IMG/VR virus record: IMGVR_UViG_3300020061_000004
Span: 59,281 to 123,280 of that record
Direction: 5' to 3' (one strand)
From: a virus
Length of the DNA stretch: 64,000 bases
Shown here: positions 14,593 to 63,488 of the stretch, in pieces
How the letters are laid out: each line of letters opens with the position of its first letter
Numbering within the stretch: the stretch's first letter is position 1
Made by a program: the position numbers and the translations under genes
The notes under the pieces: model-generated
Told to the model about the DNA's origin: nothing
What the model saw: the letters and a program-made list of their open reading frames with translations, nothing else
The model's database searches: none

Positions 14593-16665
14593 TTACCTGG
14601 ATTGTTTATTATGCTTGAAGGTGAATGTACTCTGTACCTTTCCAAATCCTTGTCCTATCCTTACAAAGGGTGAAGCAAGCATTGGATCATGTACCTTCTT
14701 AGGCATTAGAGGATCAAAGGGTTGTTCAGCTATATTACTAACAGGATAGTATTTATCCAGATGCTTAGCAAATGCTAAAGCATGCCTGAAGGCCACTATA
14801 CGGTCATAGTTACCATCCTTTGGATCATACTTGATAATCTCCATTAGAAGTACAGGGTCCAGAATTCGGGTTATACCAAGCTTGTAGATGGGTTCTCTTG
14901 TAACAGGATGTGTTCCTATCTGTATCTGTTCCTTACAATATTCTATCATTAAGGACATACAGTAGTTAATATTAGCTACTGTTGGTGATAAGCCATATAC
15001 TTTACCACCTTGGTTAGCTCTAGTCTTAGGATTTATTTCTCTTGCAATATTAAATCCCTGTCCAAGCATATGTCCTTTATTCTTACGCTCAAAATACTGG
15101 ATGAATGTACCTGCTGCATTTTCTGGAAAGCATGTAGCATTATAATAATCCATTAACATCTCAACATCTTCATGCCAAGAATCCATTCTCTCAGGACGAG
15201 ATGCCAAAGATGCCACCACCATATTCTGATAGGTTTCACCAGATACATCTGTCATTCTCTTATAGATGAAGAGTGTCCCTAGAGAGTCAGACCAATCTGA
15301 TATATCATTATTATACGGGTCGGCTCCAGCTACATAAAGCCCCATAGGAGCATTTGTAATAGGTTCTTCCCATATTACTATAGGGCAATCTGTGCCTAAG
15401 TTTCCTTTTGTTGGAAACTCTGAGATTGGTAGATCAGTAGGATCAGCATTTTTCTGAATTACCCTACCATTAGAATCTCTATATAGACGTACATAACGTC
15501 CCTTAATTTGATTAGTTTGTAAGTATTCCAGATGCTGTCTAGCTGCTTCCAAAGGGAACGGATTACTACTACCTGATAGAAAGCATTCCTCTGGTGTCAG
15601 AGGATGATACATTACAGCCTTTAAATACTCTTGTTTATCTGGGTCTTTAGACTTGATGAGTCTTTCTTCTTCTATCTTTAAGCGAGCTTTCTCTTTATCT
15701 GATACCTTAATAGGAATTGTCTTAGCTTCTAATCCAATTCCTGTAAATCCTTTTGATAAGAGATAGTCATATAGATTGGAATCAGTCTTACAATCCATTC
15801 GGTAAAGACCAGACATGAATAAGCCAGTCTTCTTTCCTGTCTCTTCATTTACTACTTCTTGGAAGTTATTAGCTGTGGGATGTTCAAATACACGTTTAGC
15901 ATCATTACCTTTCTCAAAACTACCACCAGTACCCACTAGGATTGGAACACAACGCCAGCCGTATGGTGATAGGAACGCTGGTTTATGTGCTTCAAATACT
16001 GGTGAAAATAGATATTTACCAATTTCATCATATACTGCTGCCTTTGCTGTTGTACCAGCCGCGGCTTCTGTATTTGTACCTTCTTCTGCATTACGAATCA
16101 TTATATAACTCCACACATGGTCTTCATTATTCTTGTCTTTAAAACCAAGACGTAATGTTGGCTTCCTCCAGTCTTTATCTAGTTTAGGGATAGCCAATCC
16201 TTGCCACATATGTTTCCATCCAAAATCAATCTTCTCTGTAAGAAGCTTCATGTCTGCTCCATTACCCGCTACAAGTACACTCTGTGAATTCTCATATAAT
16301 ATAGCTGTCATACCAATATGAGAAGCTTCCCATTCTGATTTACCTCCCTGACGTAATCCCACTTCTATATATCCCTTCTGAGCTACACGAGCTTTCTCAA
16401 AATACTCAGCACGTTCCCATTCATTATCTCTAAGATCAGGTAGGGATGGTGTACGTACAATGTTTCCCCACTTATCCTTCTTATCCACAATAATATGCCA
16501 GTGATTCAAATGCCCATATAAAATTCCAGGAATATGAACACCACCAATAGTAATACCCCCCATGCACTTTTCAATTTCCCACTCTACAAGAGAAGTGAAA
16601 TCATCAGTACCGGGAGGTGGCAAAGTTTTTATATTTCTAAAAAACTCAGTTGTTTTAATCTGCAT
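14593..16665 (-). CDS. terL: Terminase large subunit
   Basis: RQGGKS Walker A, VYDEIG Walker B, GTGG coupling motif, nuclease motifs AGADPY and GNYDRI. Confidence 0.9.
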   Translation of the reverse strand: MQIKTTEFFRNIKTLPPPGTDDFTSLVEWEIEKCMGGITIGGVHIPGILYGHLNHWHIIVDKKDKWGNIVRTPSLPDLRDNEWERAEYFEKARVAQKGYIEVGLRQGGKSEWEASHIGMTAILYENSQSVLVAGNGADMKLLTEKIDFGWKHMWQGLAIPKLDKDWRKPTLRLGFKDKNNEDHVWSYIMIRNAEEGTNTEAAAGTTAKAAVYDEIGKYLFSPVFEAHKPAFLSPYGWRCVPILVGTGGSFEKGNDAKRVFEHPTANNFQEVVNEETGKKTGLFMSGLYRMDCKTDSNLYDYLLSKGFTGIGLEAKTIPIKVSDKEKARLKIEEERLIKSKDPDKQEYLKAVMYHPLTPEECFLSGSSNPFPLEAARQHLEYLQTNQIKGRYVRLYRDSNGRVIQKNADPTDLPISEFPTKGNLGTDCPIVIWEEPITNAPMGLYVAGADPYNNDISDWSDSLGTLFIYKRMTDVSGETYQNMVVASLASRPERMDSWHEDVEMLMDYYNATCFPENAAGTFIQYFERKNKGHMLGQGFNIAREINPKTRANQGGKVYGLSPTVANINYCMSLMIEYCKEQIQIGTHPVTREPIYKLGITRILDPVLLMEIIKYDPKDGNYDRIVAFRHALAFAKHLDKYYPVSNIAEQPFDPLMPKKVHDPMLASPFVRIGQGFGKVQSTFTFKHNKQSR

Positions 16666-16978
16666 CTCTCTGCATTCTATGAGGAATATTAGTATTCCCT
16701 TTTGCTTCAGCCTTAGTTGCTTCTTTTTCTCTTAATTTATCTATCACTTCCAAAAGAAGAAGATAGTTCTTCATGGTATCTTGTACAGATTTAATCTGTT
16801 GTTCAATAGAAGCCACTACTGTACGCATCATACCACCATTCTTCGTCTCCTTATAGTCCATCCTATCTGTTAGTTGATCTATAGGATTGATGTCAATGTA
16901 ATTACGCCATTTCTTTAATTGCTCTTCAGCCCAATCTAAATCTGATGTTATGTAACTATTAACTTTCTTTGCTGCCAT
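16655..16978 (-). CDS. Hypothetical protein, possible terminase small subunit
   Basis: Helical 107-aa ORF overlapping the terL start. Confidence 0.4.
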   Translation of the reverse strand: MAAKKVNSYITSDLDWAEEQLKKWRNYIDINPIDQLTDRMDYKETKNGGMMRTVVASIEQQIKSVQDTMKNYLLLLEVIDKLREKEATKAEAKGNTNIPHRMQRDAD

Positions 16979-17444
16979 CTATTTGGTTTTGAGCACTAGG
17001 TTGGATTTGAACCAACGGTTGTACGGTTTTGCAGACCGGTGCCTTGGACCCCTCAGCCACTAGTGCAGGTTTCTGTGCGAAATCTAAATACTTTGATATT
17101 AAAATCTTATTCTTAAGAACGTAATCAAATATCTTCTCCACTATATATCCTGTTATATATGCTCTTGTCTCACCTAGTTTCTCTACTTCAGTCTTCTCGA
17201 TGATGTAGTCTACAATGTGGGACACTTCATGTACAATGCAGTTGGGAGTGAGTCCATGTAACTGATAGAAGATGAAGTATTTATGATCAGGTGTATCTAG
17301 TGATAAACCATAATAGCCTCCTTCTGCAAGAGGCTCCATACCATACTTCTTAAGATATCTTGGTACTATCTTTTCAATCTCTTCATCTATAATAATAGTG
17401 AGGTTGAACTCAAAGATAGGTATCTTTATAGTTGTCTTATACAT
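16959..17444 (-). CDS. Putative zincin-like metalloprotein
   Basis: HEVSH (HExxH) motif followed by ETRAY. Confidence 0.5.
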   Translation of the reverse strand: MYKTTIKIPIFEFNLTIIIDEEIEKIVPRYLKKYGMEPLAEGGYYGLSLDTPDHKYFIFYQLHGLTPNCIVHEVSHIVDYIIEKTEVEKLGETRAYITGYIVEKIFDYVLKNKILISKYLDFAQKPALVAEGSKAPVCKTVQPLVQIQPSAQNQIDGSKES

Positions 17445-17454
17445 AGAAGATATT

Positions 17455-17529
17455 TGGAAGCGGGAGCGGGATTTGAACCCGCGACCTTTGAGTTATGAGC
17501 CCAACGAGCTACCTCTGCTCTACCCCGCT
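17455..17529 (-). tRNA. tRNA-Met(CAT), initiator-like
   Basis: AGCGGGGTAGAGCAGAGGTAGCTCGTTGGGCTCATAACTCAAAGGTCGCGGGTTCAAATCCCGCTCCCGCTTCCA; body resembles fMet tRNA, CCA encoded. Confidence 0.9.
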
Positions 17530-17535
17530 ATATTA

Positions 17536-17763
17536 TTAATCTTCTATTTGTGTTGCCTTATCAGCTAGATCAGTCTCAAGTTCATCACGATAGTTTTCAA
17601 ACTTCTTGAGAAGTTCTTCATCACTCCAGTTATAATTACCTGTTTGGGGGCGCATCACATGCACAATATGCTGTGAGATACTATACTGGGGAAACAACTC
17701 TACTATCTCTACGAAATGATGAAAAATCTGTTGCTTGATCTGAGTTTTTTGTTTATTGCTCAT
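17536..17763 (-). CDS. Hypothetical protein
   Basis: 75-aa ORF coupled to the upstream gene. Confidence 0.6.
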   Translation of the reverse strand: MSNKQKTQIKQQIFHHFVEIVELFPQYSISQHIVHVMRPQTGNYNWSDEELLKKFENYRDELETDLADKATQIED

Positions 17764-18181
17764 TGGTTTTTGTTTTGTATGCTGTCCATTTAAGTTCCAT
17801 ATTGATGTTGTTATTCTGATTAAAGGCTAACAACTCTTTATCCTTGCAAGTACAATTTGATAAGTTATCAAAATTGCAACAATCAATTCCACAATTTGCT
17901 TCTAGTGAAGCTGTCTTTCTAGTGATTGTACATCCACACATAATACAATGTTCATCAAATCTATCTGTCTTATATCCAGTAGATACTGCATTTGAACTAT
18001 TGAATGGACACGTTGCACATATAAATCTTCTTCTTGCTATTTCTGCTTGTTCATCTTCAGGAAGGATATCATATTGCAATTTCACTTGATTCACTATCCC
18101 CTCCACTATCAAGTCTGCATTCTGTACTACTGTCGGCAGTAGTTTTACATATTCTATTAGTCCTTTTAGCATAAGCTTCAT
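17753..18181 (-). CDS. Cys-rich putative Zn-binding protein
   Basis: ICATCPF, HCIMCGC and further Cys clusters. Confidence 0.6.
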   Translation of the reverse strand: MKLMLKGLIEYVKLLPTVVQNADLIVEGIVNQVKLQYDILPEDEQAEIARRRFICATCPFNSSNAVSTGYKTDRFDEHCIMCGCTITRKTASLEANCGIDCCNFDNLSNCTCKDKELLAFNQNNNINMELKWTAYKTKTNEQ

Positions 18182-18512
18182 AATACTGTGTTGCTAATGT
18201 ATTCCTCTGTATTAAGGCTTTTCTAAGTTTGCCATAGTTTACTTCGAGGAGCAGGTCTTTTGTTGATTCTTTATACCTGATAGACTTCTTTATATTCCTA
18301 ATCTTATTAATTGTGGACTTTATAAAGTAGTCTATCTTACGTTTACTTGTTGTTATTGTTCCTAAGTACTTGATACTCACCGATGTAGACTCAAGGCCAC
18401 TTAGTTTTTTCCTTACTTCTTTCCAATAAAAATCATTCACACTATCAACAATCTTCTCTTCTATTCCCATCTCACGGGATACTATCTTGCTGATTACTTG
18501 AATAGTTTTCAT
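18069..18512 (-). CDS. Putative HU/IHF-like DNA-binding protein
   Basis: Basic; helix-turn-helix start then VSIKYLGTI strand as in the IHF-like proteins of crAss-like phages. Confidence 0.5.
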   Translation of the reverse strand: MKTIQVISKIVSREMGIEEKIVDSVNDFYWKEVRKKLSGLESTSVSIKYLGTITTSKRKIDYFIKSTINKIRNIKKSIRYKESTKDLLLEVNYGKLRKALIQRNTLATQYYEAYAKRTNRICKTTADSSTECRLDSGGDSESSEIAI

Positions 18513-18853
18513 TAGCTATTATCTATTTTAATCAGTACACCAATCACAGGATTAACAGGAAAGTCTAAGTCTGCATTAAGTGTGTAGTCTTTAGAATCTA
18601 CAGGACGCACTAACATTCCAAACTTCTTAAGTTTACTCATTGTATTCTTCAGACTATCCTCTGTTTTGAGAATATTTGAAGAAAGAATAAGGTCTTTAGT
18701 TTTTCTATTAATCCTATATACCATGAAATAAGCAAGGACTGTGAGTTCAGTATCAGAAAGTCGTATATTCTTGAGTAAACAAAAGATACCAATTACTTTC
18801 TTTGCCTGTTCCACCTTGCTATTGGTTTTAAGTTTGATTTTTACAAGCTGCAT
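18512..18853 (-). CDS. Hypothetical winged-helix-like protein (start MQLVKI)
   Basis: ORF downstream of a promoter; LKNTMSKLKKFGMLVR pattern. Confidence 0.5.
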   Translation of the reverse strand: MQLVKIKLKTNSKVEQAKKVIGIFCLLKNIRLSDTELTVLAYFMVYRINRKTKDLILSSNILKTEDSLKNTMSKLKKFGMLVRPVDSKDYTLNADLDFPVNPVIGVLIKIDNS

Positions 18854-18910
18854 TTCCTTAATTTCTACACAAAGATAAGTAATTGATTTCAATTAACCAA
18901 ATCTTTTTCA

Positions 18911-19396
18911 CTAATTATGATTATTTGCTGTAATTAAGTCTCTATATCTCTCATTTACAATCTTAGCCTGAGCTGATGAAGGTATTCTTCCTGATTCTAA
19001 TAGGGAAAGGATACTTCTGAAGTAAGGAGCAGGGGATATTTGTAATATCTTCTTACAACGCTTCTTATATTCCTCTATAACTCCTTGTATTCTAGTGGTA
19101 TCCTTTGATTTATTCTTCTTTACTCTTCTGGTTGATGAAGGTTTCTTCATGAAAGAAGCTATTGTTCTTTTCTCATGTGCTTTTGAATGACAATCTGCAC
19201 AAAGAGTAACTAAAGCTTTCAAAGGATATTCCCAAGGACTCTTATCTTTGATGTAATAGAGATGATGAACATGCAACATACAATTTGTAGCCTTACAATT
19301 CCTGCATGTATACTTATCACGGTTTAAAACCTGAACCCTAACTACATCAACCCAGCGTGTATCAAGTAATAATATTTTATATTCTTCTTTTGTCAT
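18911..19396 (-). CDS. HNH endonuclease (start probably MTKEEY)
   Basis: RDKYTCRNC...LHVHH...LVTLCADCH. Confidence 0.8.
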   Translation of the reverse strand: MTKEEYKILLLDTRWVDVVRVQVLNRDKYTCRNCKATNCMLHVHHLYYIKDKSPWEYPLKALVTLCADCHSKAHEKRTIASFMKKPSSTRRVKKNKSKDTTRIQGVIEEYKKRCKKILQISPAPYFRSILSLLESGRIPSSAQAKIVNERYRDLITANNHN

Positions 19397-19476
19397 AATA
19401 TTCTCTGTTGAGTATGCAATACTACGGAAAATTATTGACATTATGCCACTTTTTTCAATATTTATTTTTATATAAT

Positions 19477-19504
19477 ATAAAAACCCCTCACTTGGAGGGG
19501 CTTG
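19477..19504 (-). terminator. Intrinsic terminator
   Basis: AAGCCCCTC-CAAGT-GAGGGGTTTT. Confidence 0.7.
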
Positions 19505-19524
19505 CAACAAAAGAAGGTAGCAGA

Positions 19525-19671
19525 TTAGACTTTTTTAGCATCTGCTTCGACAGTAGAAGCTACTTCTTCAACCTTTTCAATAATCGGCTCGATCTTTTCC
19601 TTGTTATTACGGTAAATTAATATACCTGCAATGAACAAACCAAGAGATACAATAGCAACGAGTGGAACCAT
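19525..19671 (-). CDS. Small single-pass membrane protein (48 aa, not in the ORF track)
   Basis: MVPLVAIVSLGLFIAGILIYRNNKEKIEPIIEKVEEVASTVEADAKKV, with its own promoter (about 19690-19721) and terminator. Confidence 0.65.
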   Translation of the reverse strand: MVPLVAIVSLGLFIAGILIYRNNKEKIEPIIEKVEEVASTVEADAKKV

Positions 19672-19721
19672 ATGTTTCAAATTTAGATACAAAGATAATA
19701 ACTTCTTAGGAAATTACCAAA

Positions 19722-19795
19722 TGGCACGGGAGGCTTGATTCGAACAAACATCAAAGGTTTTGGAGACCTCTATTCTACCATTGAACTACTCCCGT
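19722..19795 (-). tRNA. tRNA-Trp(CCA)
   Basis: Cloverleaf, anticodon loop CTCCAAA, CCA end. Confidence 0.9.
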
Positions 19796-19796
19796 A

Positions 19797-19871
19797 TGGG
19801 GTGAAAGGACGGTAATGATCCGTCTTCTATGCCTTCACAGGGCACCGCATCACCTTAATGCTTCAGACACC
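19797..19871 (-). tRNA. tRNA-His(GTG), atypical acceptor stem
   Basis: Loop CTGTGAA, G-1:C73, CCA end; acceptor GTGTCTG/CTTTCAC has three mismatches. Confidence 0.8.
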
Positions 19872-19880
19872 ATGTATTAT

Positions 19881-19953
19881 GTACCCGATCATGGGAACGA
19901 TCCACATTCTCCTGCTTCAAAGGCAGGCATAATACCTTTATACTACTCGGGTA
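19881..19953 (-). tRNA. tRNA-Gln(TTG)
   Basis: Stem CCTGC/GCAGG, loop CTTTGAA. Confidence 0.8.
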
Positions 19954-19957
19954 TAAG

Positions 19958-20028
19958 TTGGGGAAGATTGAATCGAACAACCACCAAAGGTGTCAGAGAC
20001 CTTTGTACTACCATTATACGATTCCCCA
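19958..20028 (-). tRNA. tRNA-Gln(CTG)
   Basis: Stem AAGGT/ACCTT, loop CTCTGAC, Gln-type body. Confidence 0.85.
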
Positions 20029-20074
20029 AAATGAAGGTTCCTTACTCAATGAAGTATGCCTACAACCCAAAATG

Positions 20075-20147
20075 TGGTACAGGTTAGTTATGATCTAACT
20101 CCTCGGGATTTTCAGTCCCGCGCTTCTACCAAGTTAGCTTCTGTACC
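20075..20147 (-). tRNA. tRNA-Phe(GAA)
   Basis: Stem CGGGA/TCCCG, loop CTGAAAA. Confidence 0.9.
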
Positions 20148-20152
20148 ATAAG

Positions 20153-20226
20153 AGCCCTAGCCGGAACTCGAAGCCGGTCTGTTCCGCATTACAAGTGCGG
20201 CGCTGCACCATATCAGCATCTCGGGC
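20153..20226 (-). tRNA. tRNA-Thr(TGT)
   Basis: Stem CCGCA/TGCGG, loop CTTGTAA. Confidence 0.85.
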
Positions 20227-20275
20227 AGTTGACATTTGATTTTCACATAAAACAAAGTTTCCAAACAAAACATCG

Positions 20276-20376
20276 CTAATGGGGTACGATTCGAACGTAC
20301 ATGCAGAGGTTATTAATTCCCTATATCTGCACCACCGAGAAAAGGAGGCGAGTCTGCCAAGTTCCAACACCCATTA
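20276..20376 (-). ncRNA. Aberrant class II tRNA-like RNA (about 30-nt variable arm, loop TTTTCTC)
   Basis: Perfect acceptor TAATGGG/CCCATTA, T-arm GTACG-TTCGAAT-CGTAC, Leu/Ser-type D region, long TGCAGA...TCTGCA arm. Confidence 0.7.
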
Positions 20377-20381
20377 ATCTG

Positions 20382-20453
20382 CGGGGAAGGTATGGATCGA
20401 ACATACGACCTGAGAGTTAACAGCTCCCTGCTCTACCGCTGAGCTACTTCCCC
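20382..20453 (-). tRNA. tRNA-Asn(GTT)
   Basis: Canonical cloverleaf, loop CTGTTAA. Confidence 0.9.
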
Positions 20454-20510
20454 AAAATAGGGTGTAAGGGTTCTTCCTTACACAGGGTGCGCTTACCCCA
20501 CTTCCTATTG

Positions 20511-20586
20511 CCGGCAATACGGGATTTGAACCCGTGGTCTTCCCGTAGACAGCGGGACAGGGACAACCAGACTCCCCTAAATGCCG
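20511..20586 (-). tRNA. tRNA-Asp(GTC)
   Basis: Stem TCCCG/CGGGA, loop CTGTCTA (pyrimidine at 37), G73. Confidence 0.85.
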
Positions 20587-20594
20587 AATAAAAG

Positions 20595-20665
20595 TCTAGC
20601 TTGTCTGAATCGAACAGCTCTTCATGCTTCCAAGGCACGGGTGCTACCATCACACCCCAAACTAG
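20595..20665 (-). tRNA. tRNA-Pro(TGG)
   Basis: Stem CGTGC/GCATG, loop CTTGGAA; weak T-stem. Confidence 0.75.
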
Positions 20666-20697
20666 AAATAAAAAACCCTCCTTTAAGGGGAGGGCTT
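20666..20697 (-). terminator. Attenuator terminator of tRNA operon A
   Basis: AAGCCCTCC-CCTTAAA-GGAGGGTTTTTTATTT directly ahead of tRNA-Pro. Confidence 0.85.
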
Positions 20698-20721
20698 GTA
20701 TGAACACGCTTGAAAATTTAG

Positions 20722-20802
20722 TTATCGTGATATAATATAGCCTCTCCCAACGATTGTATCGGGTTGAAAATTAAAGGTATTATTATGCCAATTCTGAATC
20801 AT
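20722..20802 (-). CDS. Leader peptide A (26 aa) MIQNWHNNTFNFQPDTIVGRGYIISR
   Basis: Hand translation; codons 3-16 encode only Q, N, W, H, T, F, P, D, matching the downstream tRNAs. Confidence 0.85.
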   Translation of the reverse strand: MIQNWHNNTFNFQPDTIVGRGYIISR

Positions 20803-20806
20803 ACAG

Positions 20807-20838
20807 CAAAGATAAGAAGAATATTTGATATTACCAAA
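20807..20838 (-). promoter_or_regulatory. Bacteroidota-type promoter of tRNA operon A
   Basis: TTTGG...TATCTTTG, ending 4 nt before the leader ATG. Confidence 0.85.
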
Positions 20839-20857
20839 TTTCTTATAAAAATAAATG

Positions 20858-20940
20858 TGGGAGCTGATGGAGTTGAACCACCCGAGTCCTAAGACAGCAG
20901 ATTTACAGTCTGCCCCGCTACCCCTACGGTATAAACTCCC
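20858..20940 (-). tRNA. tRNA-Tyr(GTA)
   Basis: Loop CTGTAAA, long variable arm. Confidence 0.9.
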
Positions 20941-21026
20941 AAATAGCTACCCTCGGTATTTCCGAGACCAGCTTACAATATAGGGTCACTCACTTAAGAG
21001 GCTCACTAGTTTCCTAGTTACTTTAG

Positions 21027-21113
21027 AGGAAGGTGTGGGATTTGAACCCACGGAACTTTTACATCCTCCGGTTTTCAAGACCGGTGCAATCAGCCAGACT
21101 CTGCCAACCTTCC
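21027..21113 (-). tRNA. tRNA-Ser(TGA)
   Basis: Loop CTTGAAA, long variable arm. Confidence 0.9.
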
Positions 21114-21187
21114 TAAAGCTCACCCCGTAGGTGAGCAGCGCAATTAAGGCTTTGCGATGCCATTACAGCCACCCTTTGGGCAGTGTG

Positions 21188-21272
21188 AGGAGAGTAGAAG
21201 ATTCGAACTTCTGGGGCTTTAACACCCAACACTTTAGCAAAGTGTTACGATAAACCTCTCTGACAACTCTCC
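21188..21272 (-). tRNA. tRNA-Ser(GCT)
   Basis: Loop TTGCTAA, long variable arm. Confidence 0.9.
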
Positions 21273-21277
21273 TTATG

Positions 21278-21357
21278 TATCCCTAACATGATTTGAACAT
21301 GCACCCCGAAGGAGCAGATTTTAAGTCTGCCGCGTCTACCAGTTTCGCCATAGAGAT
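21278..21357 (-). tRNA. tRNA-Leu(TAA)
   Basis: Loop CTTAAAA, Leu-type D arm. Confidence 0.9.
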
Positions 21358-21363
21358 AAGTTG

Positions 21364-21448
21364 TAGGTATAGTAAGAGTCGAACTTACACGCCCATTACA
21401 GGCATCAGTTTCTAAGACTGACGTGTCTACCAATTCCACCATATACCC
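21364..21448 (-). tRNA. tRNA-Leu(TAG)
   Basis: Loop CTTAGAA, Leu-type D arm. Confidence 0.9.
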
Positions 21449-21450
21449 AT

Positions 21451-21488
21451 AAAATAAAAACCCCCGCTATCCGAATTAGCAGGGGAGT
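21451..21488 (-). terminator. Attenuator terminator of tRNA operon B
   Basis: ACTCCCCTGCTAATTCGGATAGCGGGGGTTTTTATTTT directly ahead of tRNA-Leu(TAG). Confidence 0.85.
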
Positions 21489-21528
21489 GACGATATTGTC
21501 TTTTACGAACGCTTCTTTATCACATACT

Positions 21529-21591
21529 TTACCCCTTACTATCGAGTGATAGATAACTTAAGGAGAGCAAATATGAGTTTAAATTCTTCAT
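21529..21591 (-). CDS. Leader peptide B (20 aa) MKNLNSYLLSLSYLSLDSKG; an in-frame upstream ATG lies at 21657
   Basis: Hand translation; codons 6-16 encode only Leu, Ser, Tyr, matching the downstream tRNAs. Confidence 0.85.
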   Translation of the reverse strand: MKNLNSYLLSLSYLSLDSKG

Positions 21592-21665
21592 TTTAATTAG
21601 GGGTCTCAGGAAAGATATAGAAACAATCGTGTGTACAATAAATCTATATCTATCCATCAACACAA

Positions 21666-21697
21666 CAAAGGTAATACAAATAATTGATATTACCAAA
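21666..21697 (-). promoter_or_regulatory. Bacteroidota-type promoter of tRNA operon B
   Basis: TTTGG...TACCTTTG. Confidence 0.85.
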
Positions 21698-21705
21698 TTT
21701 AAGTG

Positions 21706-21778
21706 TAGTAATGATGGGAGTTGAACCCACTACCCCGGAGGTATCAGCTCCGTACTCTAACCGTTGAGCTACACTACT
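21706..21778 (-). tRNA. tRNA-Ile(GAT)
   Basis: Stem CGGAG/CTCCG, loop CTGATAC. Confidence 0.9.
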
Positions 21779-21780
21779 AG

Positions 21781-21852
21781 TGGACTGAGATGGAATTGAA
21801 CCATCGACTTGCACATTATGAGTGTGCTGCTCTACCCCTGAGCTATCAGTCC
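21781..21852 (-). tRNA. tRNA(CAT), probably Ile2 (lysidine) rather than elongator Met
   Basis: Loop CTCATAA; GGAC- acceptor like bacterial Ile2; next to tRNA-Ile; the leader contains ATA and no internal ATG. Confidence 0.75.
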
Positions 21853-21859
21853 ATAAAAG

Positions 21860-21931
21860 TACTCTGTGACGGTTACGATCCGTCTTCCACGCTTTGAAGG
21901 AGCGTTATCCTAGCCACTAGACGAACAGAGC
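21860..21931 (-). tRNA. tRNA-Glu(TTC)
   Basis: Glu-type body, stem ACGCT/AGCGT, loop CCTTCAA (C at 33). Confidence 0.8.
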
Positions 21932-21938
21932 ATATATG

Positions 21939-22010
21939 AGCACCAGTGGGTAATCGAAACCCAATCCGCGCATTGGAAGTGCGCTATAATAGCCGTTATA
22001 CGACTGATGC
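21939..22010 (-). tRNA. tRNA-Gly(TCC)
   Basis: Loop CTTCCAA, U73. Confidence 0.9.
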
Positions 22011-22012
22011 AT

Positions 22013-22087
22013 TGGTAGAGATACCAAGAATCAAACTTGGGTCTAGGGATTAGAAGGCCCTCGTTCTATTCATTGAACTACATCTCT
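22013..22087 (-). tRNA. tRNA-Arg(TCT)
   Basis: Loop CTTCTAA, CCA end. Confidence 0.9.
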
Positions 22088-22088
22088 A

Positions 22089-22164
22089 TGGAGGACACAG
22101 AAAGAGTCAAACTTTCGTTCCCTGCTTCGTAGGCAGGAGTTCTATTCAGCTGAACTATGCGTCC
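22089..22164 (-). tRNA. tRNA-Arg(ACG)
   Basis: Loop CTACGAA, CCA end. Confidence 0.9.
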
Positions 22165-22235
22165 TAATACTGGGCCAGAGTATACAGGTTACTGTCCCTC
22201 TATGAATTTCACATAGTTACCCCAGTAGAATACTG

Positions 22236-22308
22236 TCTCCCCGTTCGGAATCGAACCGAACCCCACGGTTTAAAAGACCGTTGCCTACAACCAGTTTGCT
22301 ACAAGGAG
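22236..22308 (-). tRNA. tRNA-Lys(TTT)
   Basis: Stem ACGGT/ACCGT, loop CTTTTAA. Confidence 0.85.
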
Positions 22309-22313
22309 TTTGT

Positions 22314-22353
22314 AAAAACAAAAACCCGAAGCTGCTAGTTGCGGCTCCGGGCT
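22314..22353 (-). terminator. Attenuator terminator of tRNA operon C
   Basis: AGCCCGGAGCCGC-AACTA-GCAGCTTCGGGTTTTTGTTTTT directly ahead of tRNA-Lys. Confidence 0.85.
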
Positions 22354-22375
22354 CTGTTAAAAGAAATTGTTAGTA

Positions 22376-22477
22376 TTATCCTAAATCAATATCTTGTAGA
22401 CATATAGCTCCGGAGCCAGGTTTTCTTCCTGCCTCGCGAATAATTTCTATGCCACCGATATTGATAACTAAATTCAT
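22376..22477 (-). CDS. Leader peptide C (33 aa) MNLVINIGGIEIIREAGRKPGSGAICLQDIDLG
   Basis: Hand translation; 12 of codons 7-19 encode I, G, E, R, K, matching the downstream tRNAs. Confidence 0.85.
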   Translation of the reverse strand: MNLVINIGGIEIIREAGRKPGSGAICLQDIDLG

Positions 22478-22481
22478 AATG

Positions 22482-22513
22482 CAAAGATATGTTAAATATT
22501 TGAAACTACCAAA
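22482..22513 (-). promoter_or_regulatory. Bacteroidota-type promoter of tRNA operon C
   Basis: TTTGG...TATCTTTG, ending 4 nt before the leader ATG. Confidence 0.85.
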
Positions 22514-22746
22514 TCTTGTTTTAAAAAGGCTATTACTTCTTTAAGTTCTTGTTCAGGAGTAGATGGCCTTATCATAAATTCTCTTTCCCGATTTGTTACC
22601 ATATATCCAAAAACATTTGAGGATGCTAGGAAACCCTTTGAAATATTAAGAAATGATGGAAGGTGTGTTCCAGACATAAATCCATAATCTCCTCTACTAT
22701 GAGAGAGTCCTGTCTCCTTATCTATATAAGCTAATACAGCATTCAT
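22492..22746 (-). CDS. Hypothetical protein
   Basis: 84-aa ORF. Confidence 0.55.
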   Translation of the reverse strand: MNAVLAYIDKETGLSHSRGDYGFMSGTHLPSFLNISKGFLASSNVFGYMVTNREREFMIRPSTPEQELKEVIAFLKQDLVVSNI

Positions 22747-23030
22747 TATACAAAGATTAAACTACACAATGCTTTTGATATCCATACAATCTCACCTTTA
22801 ACTGGTTCTTGATCAATCTCAATAGATATATGAGTGCCATCAATCCCTGCAAACTCTCCATTATCTAAGGGTGTCATATTCCAATGGCTTATCTCACGTT
22901 TATCATTGAGGATGGTATAATAGCTACCATCCTCTTTTATTAATCTTATGCCGGGACAGAGATATTTCTTTGGAATATATCTATCCCTCCAATCTCCCTG
23001 TATCATCAGAGTCACTCGTGTGGGTCTCAT
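22746..23030 (-). CDS. Hypothetical protein
   Basis: 94-aa ORF, TAATG coupling. Confidence 0.55.
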   Translation of the reverse strand: MRPTRVTLMIQGDWRDRYIPKKYLCPGIRLIKEDGSYYTILNDKREISHWNMTPLDNGEFAGIDGTHISIEIDQEPVKGEIVWISKALCSLIFV

Positions 23031-23054
23031 AACTAAAAAAAATTCGTTCGTACG

Positions 23055-23456
23055 TTAACTCAAATTATCACTATCCATACCAAGCCCGAAATCATCAATC
23101 GAATCTGGTTTGATGATAGTGTCATTAGACGCGCCTTCTCCAGATTTTTCTGTTATGAATCCGTGTATACTATACCCTGTAGCGGCTGTATAGATACGCT
23201 GAAACTCACTATAAGGCAATGCCACTACAAAACTATCCCCGTCCTTAAAACGCACCGTTGTCGATTTTTTATCCTGGCTACGATTGAATCGAGAGATATC
23301 ATTGATATCAAACGTCATAGGAGCATAGTCATAAAAGAACTCTGGTTGGAAGTTGTTCTGCTCTTCACCACTCAGAAGCTTCTTTAGTTGAAGTTCCTGA
23401 TCGTCCTCTTTCTTAACACGCATCTCTGTCCATCTCACCTGCATTTCTACTATCAT
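23055..23456 (-). CDS. Hypothetical protein
   Basis: 133-aa ORF. Confidence 0.6.
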   Translation of the reverse strand: MIVEMQVRWTEMRVKKEDDQELQLKKLLSGEEQNNFQPEFFYDYAPMTFDINDISRFNRSQDKKSTTVRFKDGDSFVVALPYSEFQRIYTAATGYSIHGFITEKSGEGASNDTIIKPDSIDDFGLGMDSDNLS

Positions 23457-23457
23457 A

Positions 23458-23673
23458 TTAATATACTTCTCCTATAAGTTTGTTTATTTTCTTCCTATCA
23501 CCATTTGTTTTAGTTACAATCTCCACTAAGGTTTCAAACCTGGAGCTTCTCAATACTAGAGGGGAAGTTCTATTAGAGAATAACAAGGGATAATGATCCC
23601 TTTCTACGGCTGCCCATTCCATCTTATAGGCATTGTAGTTAAATACCCAATTGTGTAAATTACTTAGTTCCAT
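23458..23673 (-). CDS. Hypothetical protein
   Basis: 71-aa ORF. Confidence 0.55.
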   Translation of the reverse strand: MELSNLHNWVFNYNAYKMEWAAVERDHYPLLFSNRTSPLVLRSSRFETLVEIVTKTNGDRKKINKLIGEVY

Positions 23674-62719: not shown

Positions 62720-63488
62720 TGCAGGAAAAACAAGATATGATCTTGCTCCAGCATTTGCTCAGGATGTATATGCTCAAGTATTAACTTTTGGAAAAGATAA
62801 ATATGGAGAGCGTAACTAGGAAAAAGGAATGGCTTGGAGTAAAATAATTGCATCATTAGAGAGACATCTATGGGCTATCAAGAGAGGAGAAGATTATGAT
62901 CCTGAAACAGGCTTATTACATGATGGACATATTATGTGTAATGCTGCCTTTTTGACAGAGTATTATAAGATTTTCCCTCAAGGAGATGACAGACCTCTGC
63001 CATATCTACACCAAAAGAGAATTGGCACAGATATTGATGATGTATTAGCAGATTTCATTCCTGCATTTAGTAGAAGGTGTAATATACCCTCTGCTAAACA
63101 TTGGAATTATCATACGGATTTTATGAATGATTATAATAATCTTGAAGATTTCTTCTTTGAAAATCTTCCTTGCATAATTCATCCAAATGAAATTCCTTTT
63201 GAACCTGTTGTCTATATTACTTCAAGAAGAGCTAATCTCGCAGAGGCTACACATAAATGGTTATTTGAAAATAATAACTATCCTGTAGCTCCTCTAGTAT
63301 TTGCAAATGATAAATTAGATGCATGTAGAGAATATAATCTTGATGTTTTTATAGATGATAAGTATGAAACCTTCATACATCTCAATAAAAATGGAGTTCT
63401 GTGCTATCTCTTTGATGCCCCACATAATCGAAAGTATAATGTAGGCCATAAACGCATCACCAAGGATACAATTAACAGAATTTTATGA
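62688..63488 (+). pseudogene. dATP/dGTP diphosphohydrolase (DUF5664) fused to a HAD nucleotidase, interrupted by an in-frame TAG at 62817-62819
   Basis: GKTRYDL...GKDKYGERN*EKG...SLERHL...DPETGLLH then DIDDVLADF and FIDD; the stop replaces the Trp of the usual NWxKG motif. Confidence 0.75.

Follow-up and report, generated by a model that had tools for sequence, protein, structure and literature searches.

The minus strand of the 64,000-nucleotide (nt) stretch of soil phage DNA analyzed here (the window) carries three successive units between positions 19722 and 22513, each consisting of a promoter, a short open reading frame (ORF) of 20 to 33 codons, an intrinsic terminator, and a tRNA array. 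The short ORF of every unit contains a dense block of codons for the amino acids of its own array, the composition of such leaders follows that of the arrays in related phages, and a segment beyond the block is complementary to the 5′ arm of the unit's own terminator. We judge it likely that the three units are ribosome-mediated transcription attenuators of the trp/ilv style, multivalent in what they sense, each controlling one phage tRNA array. Thus, the phage would probably make a block of tRNAs only when ribosomes run short of those tRNAs. Attenuation had been put forward from an initial inspection of this DNA, and the permutation match, the co-variation, and element positions that fit the classical model lend it support.

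Of the 22 tRNA genes that ARAGORN reported in the window, the three minus-strand arrays (19722-22308) contain 20. Calls of tRNAs, ORFs, terminators, and promoters bore out the threefold layout of the original prediction (Table 1). The window contains 16 copies of the promoter pattern TTTG-N17-23-TAnnTTTG versus 3.1 expected, and one copy stands immediately 5′ of each of the three leaders, as had been claimed. In unit A, 4 nt separate the −7 box from the leader ATG, and a leaderless mRNA is therefore predicted. The intrinsic terminators end 6 to 10 nt 5′ of the first tRNA in all three units and, because the gap is only that long, there is no tRNA-type promoter between terminator and first tRNA in any of them. 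An independent terminator pattern scan listed two of the three; the third is absent since its 11-nt loop exceeds the limit of the tool. In a first set of 18 units (window and relatives), a hairpin with a T-run was present in every unit (−9.4 to −22 kcal/mol), and it was located 4 to 12 nt before the first called tRNA in 17 of them; the distance is 83 nt in L003-A because ARAGORN missed its Lys tRNA. The order within each unit of the window, namely, predicted sensed block, putative antiterminator segment, terminator, and tRNAs, fits the classical attenuation model.

Table 1. Features of the three predicted attenuator units in the window
Unit	Feature	Position	Strand	Remarks
A	Promoter	22482..22513	-	Bacteroidota-type −33 TTTG and −7 TAnnTTTG boxes
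A	Leader ORF	22376..22477	-	33 codons
A	Predicted sensed block	22421-22459	-	Codons 7-19, 13 residues: Ile, Gly, Glu, Arg, Lys, and one Ala
A	Putative antiterminator segment	22397..22420	-	Codons 20-27, complementary to terminator 5′ arm
A	Intrinsic terminator	22316..22358	-	Hairpin −22.0 kcal/mol and T-run; ends 7 nt before tRNA-Lys
A	tRNA array	21705..22308	-	Lys-UUU, Arg-ACG, Arg-UCU, Gly-UCC, Glu-UUC, CAU-anticodon tRNA, Ile-GAU
B	Promoter	21666..21697	-	Same Bacteroidota type; ends 8 nt before in-frame upstream ATG at 21657
B	Leader ORF	21529..21591	-	20 codons; 42 if the start is the in-frame ATG at 21657
B	Predicted sensed block	21544-21576	-	Codons 6-16: Leu, Ser, Tyr only
B	Putative antiterminator segment	21529-21543	-	Overlaps stop codon; −11.4 kcal/mol versus own terminator 5′ arm
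B	Intrinsic terminator	21459..21500 (core hairpin 21461-21485)	-	−17.6 kcal/mol and T-run; ends 10 nt before tRNA-Leu
B	tRNA array	20857..21448	-	Leu-UAG, Leu-UAA, Ser-GCU, Ser-UGA, Tyr-GUA
C	Promoter	20807..20838	-	−7 box ends 4 nt before ATG
C	Leader ORF	20722..20802	-	26 codons
C	Predicted sensed block	20755-20796	-	Codons 3-16, 14 consecutive codons
C	Putative antiterminator segment	20737-20748	-	−12.5 kcal/mol versus own terminator 5′ arm
C	Intrinsic terminator	20672..20697	-	Hairpin −13.0 kcal/mol and T-run; ends 6 nt before tRNA-Pro
C	tRNA array	19722..20665	-	Pro, Asp, Asn, tRNA-like element, Thr, Phe, Gln-CUG, Gln-UUG, His, Trp

Two of the tRNAs named in the original prediction stand with qualification. 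The Ile2 gene of array A is present as a CAU-anticodon tRNA, which ARAGORN labels Met and which is probably Ile2. The tRNA-His of array C (19800-19870) is a weak call, found by Rfam (31.4 bits; gathering score, 29) and by relaxed ARAGORN (His-GUG) and absent at default ARAGORN settings. Spacers that contain no assigned gene occur in array A (70 nt, 22165-22234) and array B (21114-21186 and 20941-21025), and array C harbors a conserved tRNA-like element at about 20280-20375, between Asn and Thr.

The claim that leader codons mirror their own array held for all three units, which possess blocks of 11 to 14 residues, nearly all of them in the set of the array, with every array amino acid represented. 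The unit A block covers five of five array amino acids and includes both Arg codon families, one AUA codon, and an Ala that has no tRNA in the array. In unit B, 11 of 11 residues are in the set, the three array amino acids are covered, and the two codon families of Leu and the two of Ser are all present; in unit C, the figures are 14/14 residues and 8/8 amino acids, with one CAG and one CAA. Scores against the own array were 10, 11, and 14 (A, B, and C), versus 1 to 3 against the other two arrays of the phage, and the other five reading frames scored 1 to 5. The permutation test proposed earlier was strongly positive, as the observed scores were reached by 9, 0, and 1 random peptides per 200,000 trials for units A, B, and C, respectively. 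Among 691 other short ORFs in the window, the corresponding numbers were 1, 0, and 0, the single case being an unrelated Lys/Ile-rich ORF that equals the unit A score. Taken jointly, the three matches have a probability far smaller than any correction for multiple testing would require. The unit A leader retains Val at one codon and Ala at two, of which one lies within the block. No Val or Ala tRNA was found in the 123 kb of this phage (76% complete), and relatives possessing Val and Ala tRNAs show the same leader codons.

Co-variation of leader and array was then evaluated in 27 units from 16 phage contigs, which were found through terminase; for several array tRNAs, acceptance required relaxed ARAGORN thresholds or manual reading of the anticodon loop. 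With the sensed region taken to run from codon 2 up to the antiterminator segment, and the tail as the remainder of the ORF, in-set residues made up 335 of 458 (73%) in sensed regions versus 67 of 206 (33%) in tails, and 169 of the 176 array amino acids were represented in the sensed region. The mean in-set fraction was 0.73 for the own array versus 0.34 for the arrays of other units, with none of 20,000 permutations as good; the units share descent, and pooled P values therefore overstate independence. Twenty-five contrasts were available between homologous leaders with differing arrays. Twelve were concordant in the strict present/absent sense, 8 showed a difference of degree in the expected direction, 2 were ties, and 3 were opposite. 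These data indicated that leader composition tracks array composition (20/25), a strongly positive outcome of the co-variation test that had been suggested for related phages. For example, L112 has neither a Phe or Trp tRNA nor a Phe or Trp leader codon, and Asn is missing from array and leader alike in L040. The leaders of L015, L066, and L130 cover all 12 unambiguous amino acids in differing residue orders; among the relatives, residue order is shuffled and composition is kept.

Exceptions were also encountered. The L041 leader carries codons for Leu, Arg, Pro, Ser, Tyr, Gln, and His before an array of Pro, Val, Gly, and Cys, such that 1 of 17 residues is in the set; we read this mismatch as a probable recent deletion. 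Some leader residues have no detected tRNA in L042, L059, and L070-2, and some arrays of relatives have no leader, e.g., the Ile-Ile-Ala arrays of L006 and L040. A different layout was seen in five relatives, where a Glu-rich ORF leads straight into tRNA-Glu, with no terminator between them.

The match extends to the codon level: in the 17 units examined for this property, the array supplies an anticodon able to read 252 of the 254 in-set codons if wobble is treated permissively. Blocks contain CGN codons where the array has Arg-ACG only (3/3), AGA where it has Arg-UCU only (2/2), and both where both isoacceptors are present (3/3), and AUA occurs in the leader wherever a CAU tRNA accompanies Ile-GAU. 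We propose that sensing may operate partly at the isoacceptor level.

A segment 3′ of the block and complementary to the terminator 5′ arm, another element of the original prediction, was located in or at the end of all three ORFs (−23.5, −11.4, and −12.5 kcal/mol for A, B, and C), and for the unit A segment its own arm was the best of 18. The segment follows the block at about codons 17 to 23, near the stop codon; it lies 1 to 4 codons beyond the block and, in most units, at or beside the stop codon. Pairing of ORF tails with their own terminator arm averaged −14.2 kcal/mol versus −8.9 kcal/mol with other arms in 18 units and −13.2 versus −8.2 kcal/mol in 27 units, and 0 of 20,000 permutations did as well in either set.

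Simple folding models gave mixed results, with the expected switch on average and in one of the three window units per model. At equilibrium, the mean terminator probability over 18 units fell from 0.89 with no ribosome to 0.51 when one was stalled mid-block and stood at 0.88 when it had reached the stop codon; the mid-block values of 0.13, 0.98, and 0.69 for units A, B, and C support a switch for A only. When the transcript was ended before the 3′ arm, the 5′ arm was paired at 0.75 with a stalled ribosome versus 0.57 with one at the stop codon (Wilcoxon p = 0.018). Among the window units, only B switches as expected in this model, and the terminator arms of A and C are paired in all three ribosome states.

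In the mechanism that we propose, the transcription start site, leader translation, the sign of the response, and the feedback are predicted from sequence. Host RNA polymerase would initiate at the Bacteroidota-type promoter, and a ribosome would translate the short leader ORF, on an mRNA that is probably leaderless in two of the three units. With all aminoacyl-tRNAs of the block plentiful, the ribosome would reach the stop codon and cover or pass the antiterminator segment, so that the terminator hairpin would form upstream of the first tRNA and leave the array untranscribed. Were any array-encoded tRNA scarce, the ribosome would stall in the block, the antiterminator would pair with the terminator 5′ arm, and polymerase would enter the array. 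The new tRNAs would then relieve the stall and turn the unit off again, constituting a negative feedback.

Four other explanations were weighed against attenuation. The first, which we regard as unlikely, agrees that leaders sense the decoding of array codons but places the output elsewhere than in terminator readthrough: in precursor processing or stability that depends on the ribosome, in polarity through Rho, or in the occlusion of RNase P/RNase E sites. It would accommodate the folding models, in which units B and C do not switch cleanly, and the Glu-rich ORFs directly abutting tRNA-Glu suggest a translation-coupled action on the tRNA precursor. However, it leaves without purpose both the strong terminators in 18 of 18 first-set units and the segments complementary to the own arm, which no permutation equaled. 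Rather less probable is a response of the opposite sign, in which efficient leader translation promotes readthrough and tRNAs are made when decoding is good (feed-forward). No measurement here fixes the sign, and the arms of A and C that stay paired in every ribosome state would suit this reading. Against it, the complementary segment sits in most units where a terminating ribosome would cover it and, lying just past the block, where a stalled ribosome leaves it free, and the mean terminator probability drops only in the stalled state. We give still less credence to direct binding of tRNAs by an untranslated leader RNA in the manner of a T-box. The codons do match the anticodons of downstream tRNAs, partly at the isoacceptor level, but they are contiguous in one frame, from an ATG beside the promoter to the antiterminator segment, with no match in the other five frames, and relatives retain their composition in shuffled order; moreover, neither the T-box covariance model nor any other known cis-regulatory family of Rfam matched 16500-23500 at E values up to 1. 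That the ORFs are small proteins with their own function, or nongenes, resembling the arrays by coincidence or shared ancestry is disfavoured and scarcely credible. Short ORFs are indeed common in AT-rich DNA and one Lys/Ile-rich ORF reaches the unit A score, but the joint probability of three matches, the leaders that follow their arrays in the contrasts, and the tails without enrichment all argue against it.

The preferred reading, ribosome-mediated attenuation, has precedents. Multivalent leaders are known in enterobacteria, as in ilvGMEDA (Ile, Leu, and Val) and thr (Thr and Ile), and further leaders include trp, his, leu, and phe. As in those leaders, a short ORF rich in regulatory codons, here predicted to be translated, is followed by an intrinsic terminator, and the predicted alternative pairing uses the terminator 5′ arm, with a ribosome stalled by aminoacyl-tRNA shortage giving readthrough. 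To our knowledge, all leader-peptide attenuators regulate genes for amino acid biosynthesis or aminoacylation. In contrast, the genes controlled by the window units would be tRNAs, which belong to neither class and are not biosynthetic enzymes; therefore, the product sensed would be the product made. The units also differ from enterobacterial leaders in the number of amino acids predicted to be sensed (3, 5, or 8 in the window and as many as 12 or 13 in relatives, versus 1 to 3), in regulatory codons mixed one or two at a time rather than in long single-codon runs, in a probably leaderless mRNA with a Bacteroidota-type promoter, and in their tandem arrangement within a phage. The Escherichia coli pheM leader, which controls pheST (phenylalanyl-tRNA synthetase), likewise attenuates a component of the translation apparatus, but its target is a synthetase rather than tRNA genes, and it senses a single amino acid. 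The Rfam family "Bacteroid-trp," a predicted Trp leader of Bacteroidota that gave no hit here, suggests that leader-peptide attenuation works in the presumed host phylum, although it controls Trp biosynthesis genes and also senses one amino acid. T-box riboswitches share with the units the sensing of the state of specific tRNAs and a terminator/antiterminator switch upstream of translation-related genes; however, they bind uncharged tRNA directly and are untranslated, whereas the ORF structure here argues for translation. For pheL, one account (PMC3082878) presents a leader-peptide attenuator model. In Anabaena PCC 7120, the trn tRNA operon is reported to be silent, with TrcR as its repressor, and to be switched on by translational stress (PMC10272220; PMC8421152). 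It resembles our proposal in that an accessory tRNA array would be off until translation is impaired; it differs, as reported, in employing a ribbon-helix-helix repressor on the whole 26-gene operon and is not known to have a codon-matched leader in cis for each array.

The usual view of phage tRNA genes is that they are expressed constitutively to assist with codon usage or that they act as decoys for defences that cleave tRNAs, and we know of almost nothing on their regulation. Our literature search found no published account of leader-peptide attenuators controlling phage tRNA arrays. A cis sensor reading the codons served by the tRNAs downstream would form a closed feedback loop on tRNA supply and, as far as our searches show, would be new for tRNA genes in any organism; if the proposal is true, no attenuator described so far would come close to it in multivalency. 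More tentatively, the tRNA genes of large phages of Bacteroidota-type hosts may act as a bank of demand sensors that work independently, are multivalent, and partly resolve isoacceptors, with each array transcribed only if decoding is limited by a tRNA that it encodes. Such a shortage could arise from codon usage that differs between phage and host, from decay of host tRNAs after shut-off, or from host nucleases that cut tRNAs; the involvement of host tRNA-cleaving defences is offered as a suggestion.

Such attenuators would make it possible to test directly when a phage needs tRNAs of its own and why, explain the sorting of arrays into fixed isotype groups, and provide compact parts for synthetic control in Bacteroidota. 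They would also open a sequence-only route to annotating noncanonical phage tRNAs and small leader genes in metagenomes. If the demand-sensor bank exists, leader peptides could reveal the identity of odd phage tRNAs, such as the CAU tRNA as Ile2 or tRNAs missed by gene finders. On that supposition, the RNA ligase and the CCA-adding-type enzyme that the same phage encodes would represent a second line of tRNA maintenance.

The virus record comprises 123,280 bases (36% G+C, 76% complete by CheckV), and the window is its right-hand 64 kb. ARAGORN identified 22 tRNA genes in the window, all on the minus strand, 20 of which are clustered in three arrays at 19722-22308. A weak extra tRNA was detected with Rfam (31.4 bits versus a gathering score of 29) and was called His-GUG by ARAGORN under relaxed settings. 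The elements upstream of every array follow the same order, i.e., promoter, ORF, hairpin with a T-run, and first tRNA; these sets are referred to as units A, B, and C. The hairpins of units B and C were found independently among the top three matches of a general terminator scan, from which that of unit A is absent because its 11-nt loop exceeds the limit of the tool. The sequencing runs listed for positions 19600-22600 comprise four DNA-type entries from three studies and no RNA entry.

Features of the tRNA region and of related loci (window positions unless a contig is named; G000 is the record of this phage, and L numbers denote contigs of related phages)
Feature	Position	Strand	Description
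Unit A		minus	Lys, Arg-ACG, Arg-UCU, Gly, Glu, CAU-anticodon tRNA, Ile-GAU; leader ORF of 33 codons from ATG; G+C-rich hairpin with T-run, -22.0 kcal/mol, 7 nt before first tRNA
Unit B		minus	Leu-UAG, Leu-UAA, Ser-GCU, Ser-UGA, Tyr; leader ORF of 20 codons from ATG; G+C-rich hairpin with T-run, -17.6 kcal/mol, 10 nt before first tRNA
Unit C		minus	Pro, Asp, Asn, Thr, Phe, Gln-CUG, Gln-UUG, His, Trp; leader ORF of 26 codons from ATG; G+C-rich hairpin with T-run, -13.0 kcal/mol, 6 nt before first tRNA
Weak extra tRNA	19800-19870		His-GUG
Promoters	18870-18901, 19690-19721, 20807-20838, 21666-21697, 22482-22513	minus	extended -33 box starting TTTGGT, 32-nt spacing
Small ORF	19525-19692		membrane-protein-like, right after tRNA-Trp
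HNH ORF	18911-19510	minus	phrog_119, E = 4e-18
HNH gene	L040:6731-7117
Array spacers	22165-22234, 21114-21186, 20941-21025	minus	inside arrays A and B; 70-85 nt
Asn-Thr gap	20227-20380		154 nt
tRNA-like element	20280-20375	minus	in the Asn-Thr gap
tRNA-like element, other copies	L003:6196-6295, L004:6191-6286
tRNA-Met (CAU)	17455-17529	minus	solitary
tRNA-Cys	16991-17066	minus	solitary
Low-complexity ORF	63045-63182		Lys/Ile-rich
Mismatched unit	L041:6230-6660
Lone tRNA-Glu units	L011:5533-5661, L015:2584-2708, L066:664-785, L070:3891-4016, L130:about 60-185
RNA ligase match	G000:C1:1278-1961		PF09414, 35.9 bits; outside the window
PolyA_pol/CCA-adding family match	G000:C1:4019-4429		PF01743, 58.5 bits; beside the RNA ligase match

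According to the original prediction, each leader carries codons for the amino acids of its own array. We scored a leader by its best segment, in which each residue carried by a tRNA of the unit's own array (in set) adds 1 and any other subtracts 2. The unit C leader scored 14 (14/14 residues in set, 8/8 own-array amino acids), the unit B leader 11 (11/11 and 3/3), and the unit A leader 10 over 13 residues, with Ala as the single outsider (5/5 own-array amino acids). The three leaders scored 1 to 3 against the phage's other two arrays, and the five remaining reading frames of each leader gave 1 to 5. The scores of A, B, and C were reached by 1, 0, and 0, respectively, of the 691 other window ATG ORFs of 15 to 45 codons, the sole ORF equalling unit A being the low-complexity one in the table. 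The match probability, whose calculation had been proposed along with the prediction, was estimated with 200,000 random peptides of the same background composition, of which 9, 0, and 1 equalled these scores. By both comparisons, the predicted match is far above chance.

Close relatives are absent from GenBank, as a 3.3-kb query run with blastn on 50,697 phage records returned single tRNAs only, covering at most 7% of its length. Relatives were sought via the large terminase (phrog_6681), 3 to 6 kb downstream, which yielded 5 and then 53 related loci on IMG/VR viral contigs and 80 more on metagenome contigs, most of them having no tRNA array inside the 10 kb fetched. The architecture was present in the IMG/VR relatives L003, L004, L006, L011, L015, L040, L041, and L042 and in the further relatives L059, L066, L070, L112, L120, L121, and L130, and the terminase identity of array-bearing relatives to the window ranges from 73% down to about 39%. 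L005, L007, and L016 were dropped as duplicates, their tRNA coordinates being equal to those of L003, L006, and L015 (judged without alignment), as were L060, L064, L118, and L126, whose contig ranges are identical to those of L008, L011, L040, and L042. Also excluded were L008, in which an HNH-like ORF precedes the array and the available DNA holds no leader; the first array of L066, which is truncated at the edge of the contig; L043, L048, and L054, with 1 or 2 tRNAs each; and the Ile-Ile-Ala, Asp, and Glu units of relatives, which are without a terminator-type leader. The total is 27 units on 16 contigs, window included.

In these units, the sensed region was set blind to amino acids, from codon 2 up to the segment pairing with the terminator arm. 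In-set residues account for 335/458 positions of the sensed regions versus 67/206 of the ORF tails, and 169 of the 176 array amino acids are present in the sensed region; the pooled 2x2 table gives an odds ratio of 68, for which a P value is not meaningful since the units are related. The automated boundary misplaced the antiterminator segment in two units (L015-1 and L112-1), resulting in three of the seven coverage misses; with the boundaries of the 18-unit duplex analysis described below, L041-1 accounts for every one of the three misses. When units were scored against their own array, the in-set fraction was 0.73, compared with 0.34 against the arrays of other units, and none of 20,000 reassignments was as good.

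Among homologous leaders, residue order varies, composition stays that of each leader's own array, and differences between arrays are mirrored in the leaders. In L112, the tRNAs are Pro, Asp, Asn, Thr, Gln, and His, without Phe or Trp, and the leader has neither Phe nor Trp codons. Arg-ACG replaces Asn and Asp in L040 and L120, and their blocks of array-matched codons contain Arg and no Asn. Ala and Cys of L121 occupy the positions of Arg and Ser in L070, and the leaders follow, bar one tail Cys in L070. The leaders of L015, L066, and L130, heading arrays of 13 to 14 tRNAs, cover 12/12 unambiguous amino acids in three different orders and also hold Met/Ile for the CAU tRNAs. When nine pairs of whole leaders were compared, 12 of the 25 amino-acid contrasts were strictly concordant in presence and absence, 8 had more copies on the side having the tRNA, 2 were ties, and 3 went the wrong way, all via ORF-tail residues. 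A leader content unrelated to array content in relatives had been named as grounds for refuting the prediction; 20 of the 25 contrasts ran in the expected direction and 3 in the opposite one.

The match extends to codons, as seen in 17 of the 27 units (L041-1 and nine metagenome units were left out). With wobble treated permissively, own-array anticodons can read 252 of the 254 in-set codons, and both unreadable ones are AGA codons in tails. Arg is the informative amino acid: arrays with Arg-ACG as the only Arg tRNA have CGC, CGA, or CGT in the block (3/3), those with Arg-UCU only have AGA (2/2), and those with both, including window unit A, have one codon of each family (3/3). In every Leu/Ser/Tyr leader, the two codon families of Leu and the two of Ser are all represented. 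AUA is present wherever a CAU tRNA adjoins Ile-GAU, which supports the predicted Ile2 identity of this tRNA, an assignment that we still infer. The two Gln tRNAs of window unit C are matched by a single CAG and a single CAA codon; this pairing is not general because L040 also has both Gln tRNAs, yet CAA twice.

A terminator was found in all 18 units of the first set, lying 4 to 12 nt before the first called tRNA in 17 of them; the 83 nt seen in L003-A result from a Lys tRNA that ARAGORN misses. In every unit, an ORF segment at about codons 17 to 23, often overlapping the stop, is complementary to the 5' arm of its own terminator. The mean duplex energy was -14.2 kcal/mol with the own arm versus -8.9 kcal/mol with the arms of other units (0/20,000 permutations as good), and the own arm ranked first or second in 12 of 18 units; for all 27 units the values were -13.2 and -8.2 kcal/mol (0/20,000). 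Terminator arms vary between homologous units, and the ORF segment varies along with them. The complementary segment 3' of the block that had been predicted is specific to its own arm.

The positions of block, segment, and terminator match the classical attenuation model, in which a ribosome stalled in the block would leave the antiterminator segment free and one at the stop codon would cover it. Folding was modeled at equilibrium and for a truncated transcript, with the ribosome footprint masked. The mean terminator-formation probability of the 18 units was 0.89 without a ribosome, 0.51 with one stalled mid-block, and 0.88 with one at the stop codon, the mid-block values in the window being 0.13 (A), 0.98 (B), and 0.69 (C); because attenuation is kinetic, equilibrium values of this kind do not decide for or against a switch. 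When the transcript was cut short of the 3' arm, pairing of the 5' arm had a probability of 0.75 in the stalled state versus 0.57 with the ribosome at the stop codon (p = 0.018), and among the window units only B pairs the arm more when stalled. Thermodynamic modeling thus lends only partial support to the putative switch, and the reading given below does not depend on it.

The TTTG/TAnnTTTG promoter pattern occurs 16 times in the window versus 3.1 expected (0/100 shuffles as many), and it stands before each of the three leader ORFs, as predicted. Sigma-70-type promoters are not enriched in the window (30 versus 27.8 expected). From the promoter type only, we infer Bacteroidota as the host phylum. 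The -7 box ends 4 to 5 nt upstream of the leader ATG in 11 of 27 units, including window A and C; in L112 this spacing is obtained when the ORF is started two codons earlier, at another in-frame ATG, and in window unit B there are 8 nt from the box to an in-frame upstream ATG. In Bacteroides promoters, transcription starts a few bases past the TAnnTTTG box. Provided that this start position holds here, the units with the 4- to 5-nt spacing probably yield leaderless mRNAs. Other units have A-rich leaders of 15 to 27 nt or lie behind a small ORF or tRNA-Glu without a promoter of their own. Of the five TTTGGT promoters in the window, three drive leaders and one drives the membrane-protein-like small ORF, homologues of which lie directly upstream of a leader in L040 and L042.

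Judging by these sequence features, we consider it quite likely that ribosome-mediated attenuators gate the tRNA arrays, which would place the supply of the very same tRNAs under negative feedback. A T-box riboswitch was rejected, since the Rfam search gave no T-box match at E up to 1 in 16500-23500 and the leader-array match is frame-specific. The proposed attenuators share their working principle with the multivalent ilv and thr attenuators; they are not ordinary members of that group because the genes under control are tRNAs, many more amino acids are sensed per leader, and the mRNA probably begins leaderless. In function, the closest parallel is the trn operon of Anabaena, which translational stress switches on by way of the repressor TrcR (PMC10272220; PMC8421152). 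The prediction had left its novelty to a literature check, and no account of leader-peptide attenuation of tRNA genes was found in searchable full texts, a scope outside which subscription journals and supplements fall. An attenuator-like leader was reportedly described in the 1980s at the Escherichia coli tRNA-Phe genes pheV and pheU; this precedent is unsupported, as the sequence of about 105 nt upstream of either gene in K-12 lacks both a short Phe-rich ORF and a terminator ahead of the tRNA.

Several units depart from the match. The window unit A leader retains a Val codon and two Ala codons, one of the latter in the block; in L003 and L004, tRNAs for Val and Ala come after Ile, but neither is found in the window or elsewhere in the 123-kb record. 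In L041, a Pro/Gln/His/Arg/Leu/Ser/Tyr-type leader precedes Pro, Val, Gly, and then Cys, with 1/17 residues in set. The gene order of L015 suggests that a deletion joined the front of one array to the rear of a second; if so, the mismatched sensor would be a natural experiment on the speed of leader re-adaptation. The L042 array has Pro, Gln, and His only, and Leu, Tyr, and Ser codons persist beside the block. L059 and L070-2 have Gln/Asn and Arg/Phe leader codons, respectively, without a detected tRNA; missed tRNAs are possible because gaps of 80 to 260 nt remain. No such leader accompanies the Ile-Ile-Ala arrays and lone Asp of L006 and L040.

In five relatives, a lone tRNA-Glu is preceded by a promoter and by an ORF of about 16 to 18 codons that is probably leaderless, unlike in the window, where Glu sits inside array A. 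The last part of this ORF is Glu-rich and reads on into the tRNA without a terminator, and its final Glu codon pair is complementary to the 5' strand of the tRNA acceptor stem. By their sequence, these ORFs may be a different, processing-level sensor.

The solitary tRNA-Met and tRNA-Cys of the window lie amid protein genes without a leader/terminator unit; in L011, L015, L066, and L130, Cys ends a leader-controlled array whose leader has Cys codons. The three spacers in arrays A and B are about tRNA-sized and were recognized neither by the tRNA search nor by Rfam; they may represent small RNAs or else tRNAs that have decayed or are non-canonical. The tRNA-like element in the Asn-Thr gap, for which Rfam gives no match, is conserved in L003 and L004. 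It combines an acceptor stem of 8 bp with a T arm and a long variable arm, and compensatory changes occur at three pairs. The window and L003 copies have an aberrant anticodon region, and ARAGORN calls the L004 copy a 96-nt Asp-GUC tRNA. As regards the suggested link to tRNA-cleaving defences, the RNA-ligase-family and CCA-adding/poly(A)-polymerase-family genes outside the window, as assigned by the matches in the table, show that the phage invests in tRNA upkeep, nothing more. HNH endonuclease genes, judged by eye in the relatives, adjoin or interrupt tRNA arrays in the window, L040, L041 (Gly-Cys), and L008 (upstream of 506), and the L040 leader still names tRNAs lying past the HNH insertion.
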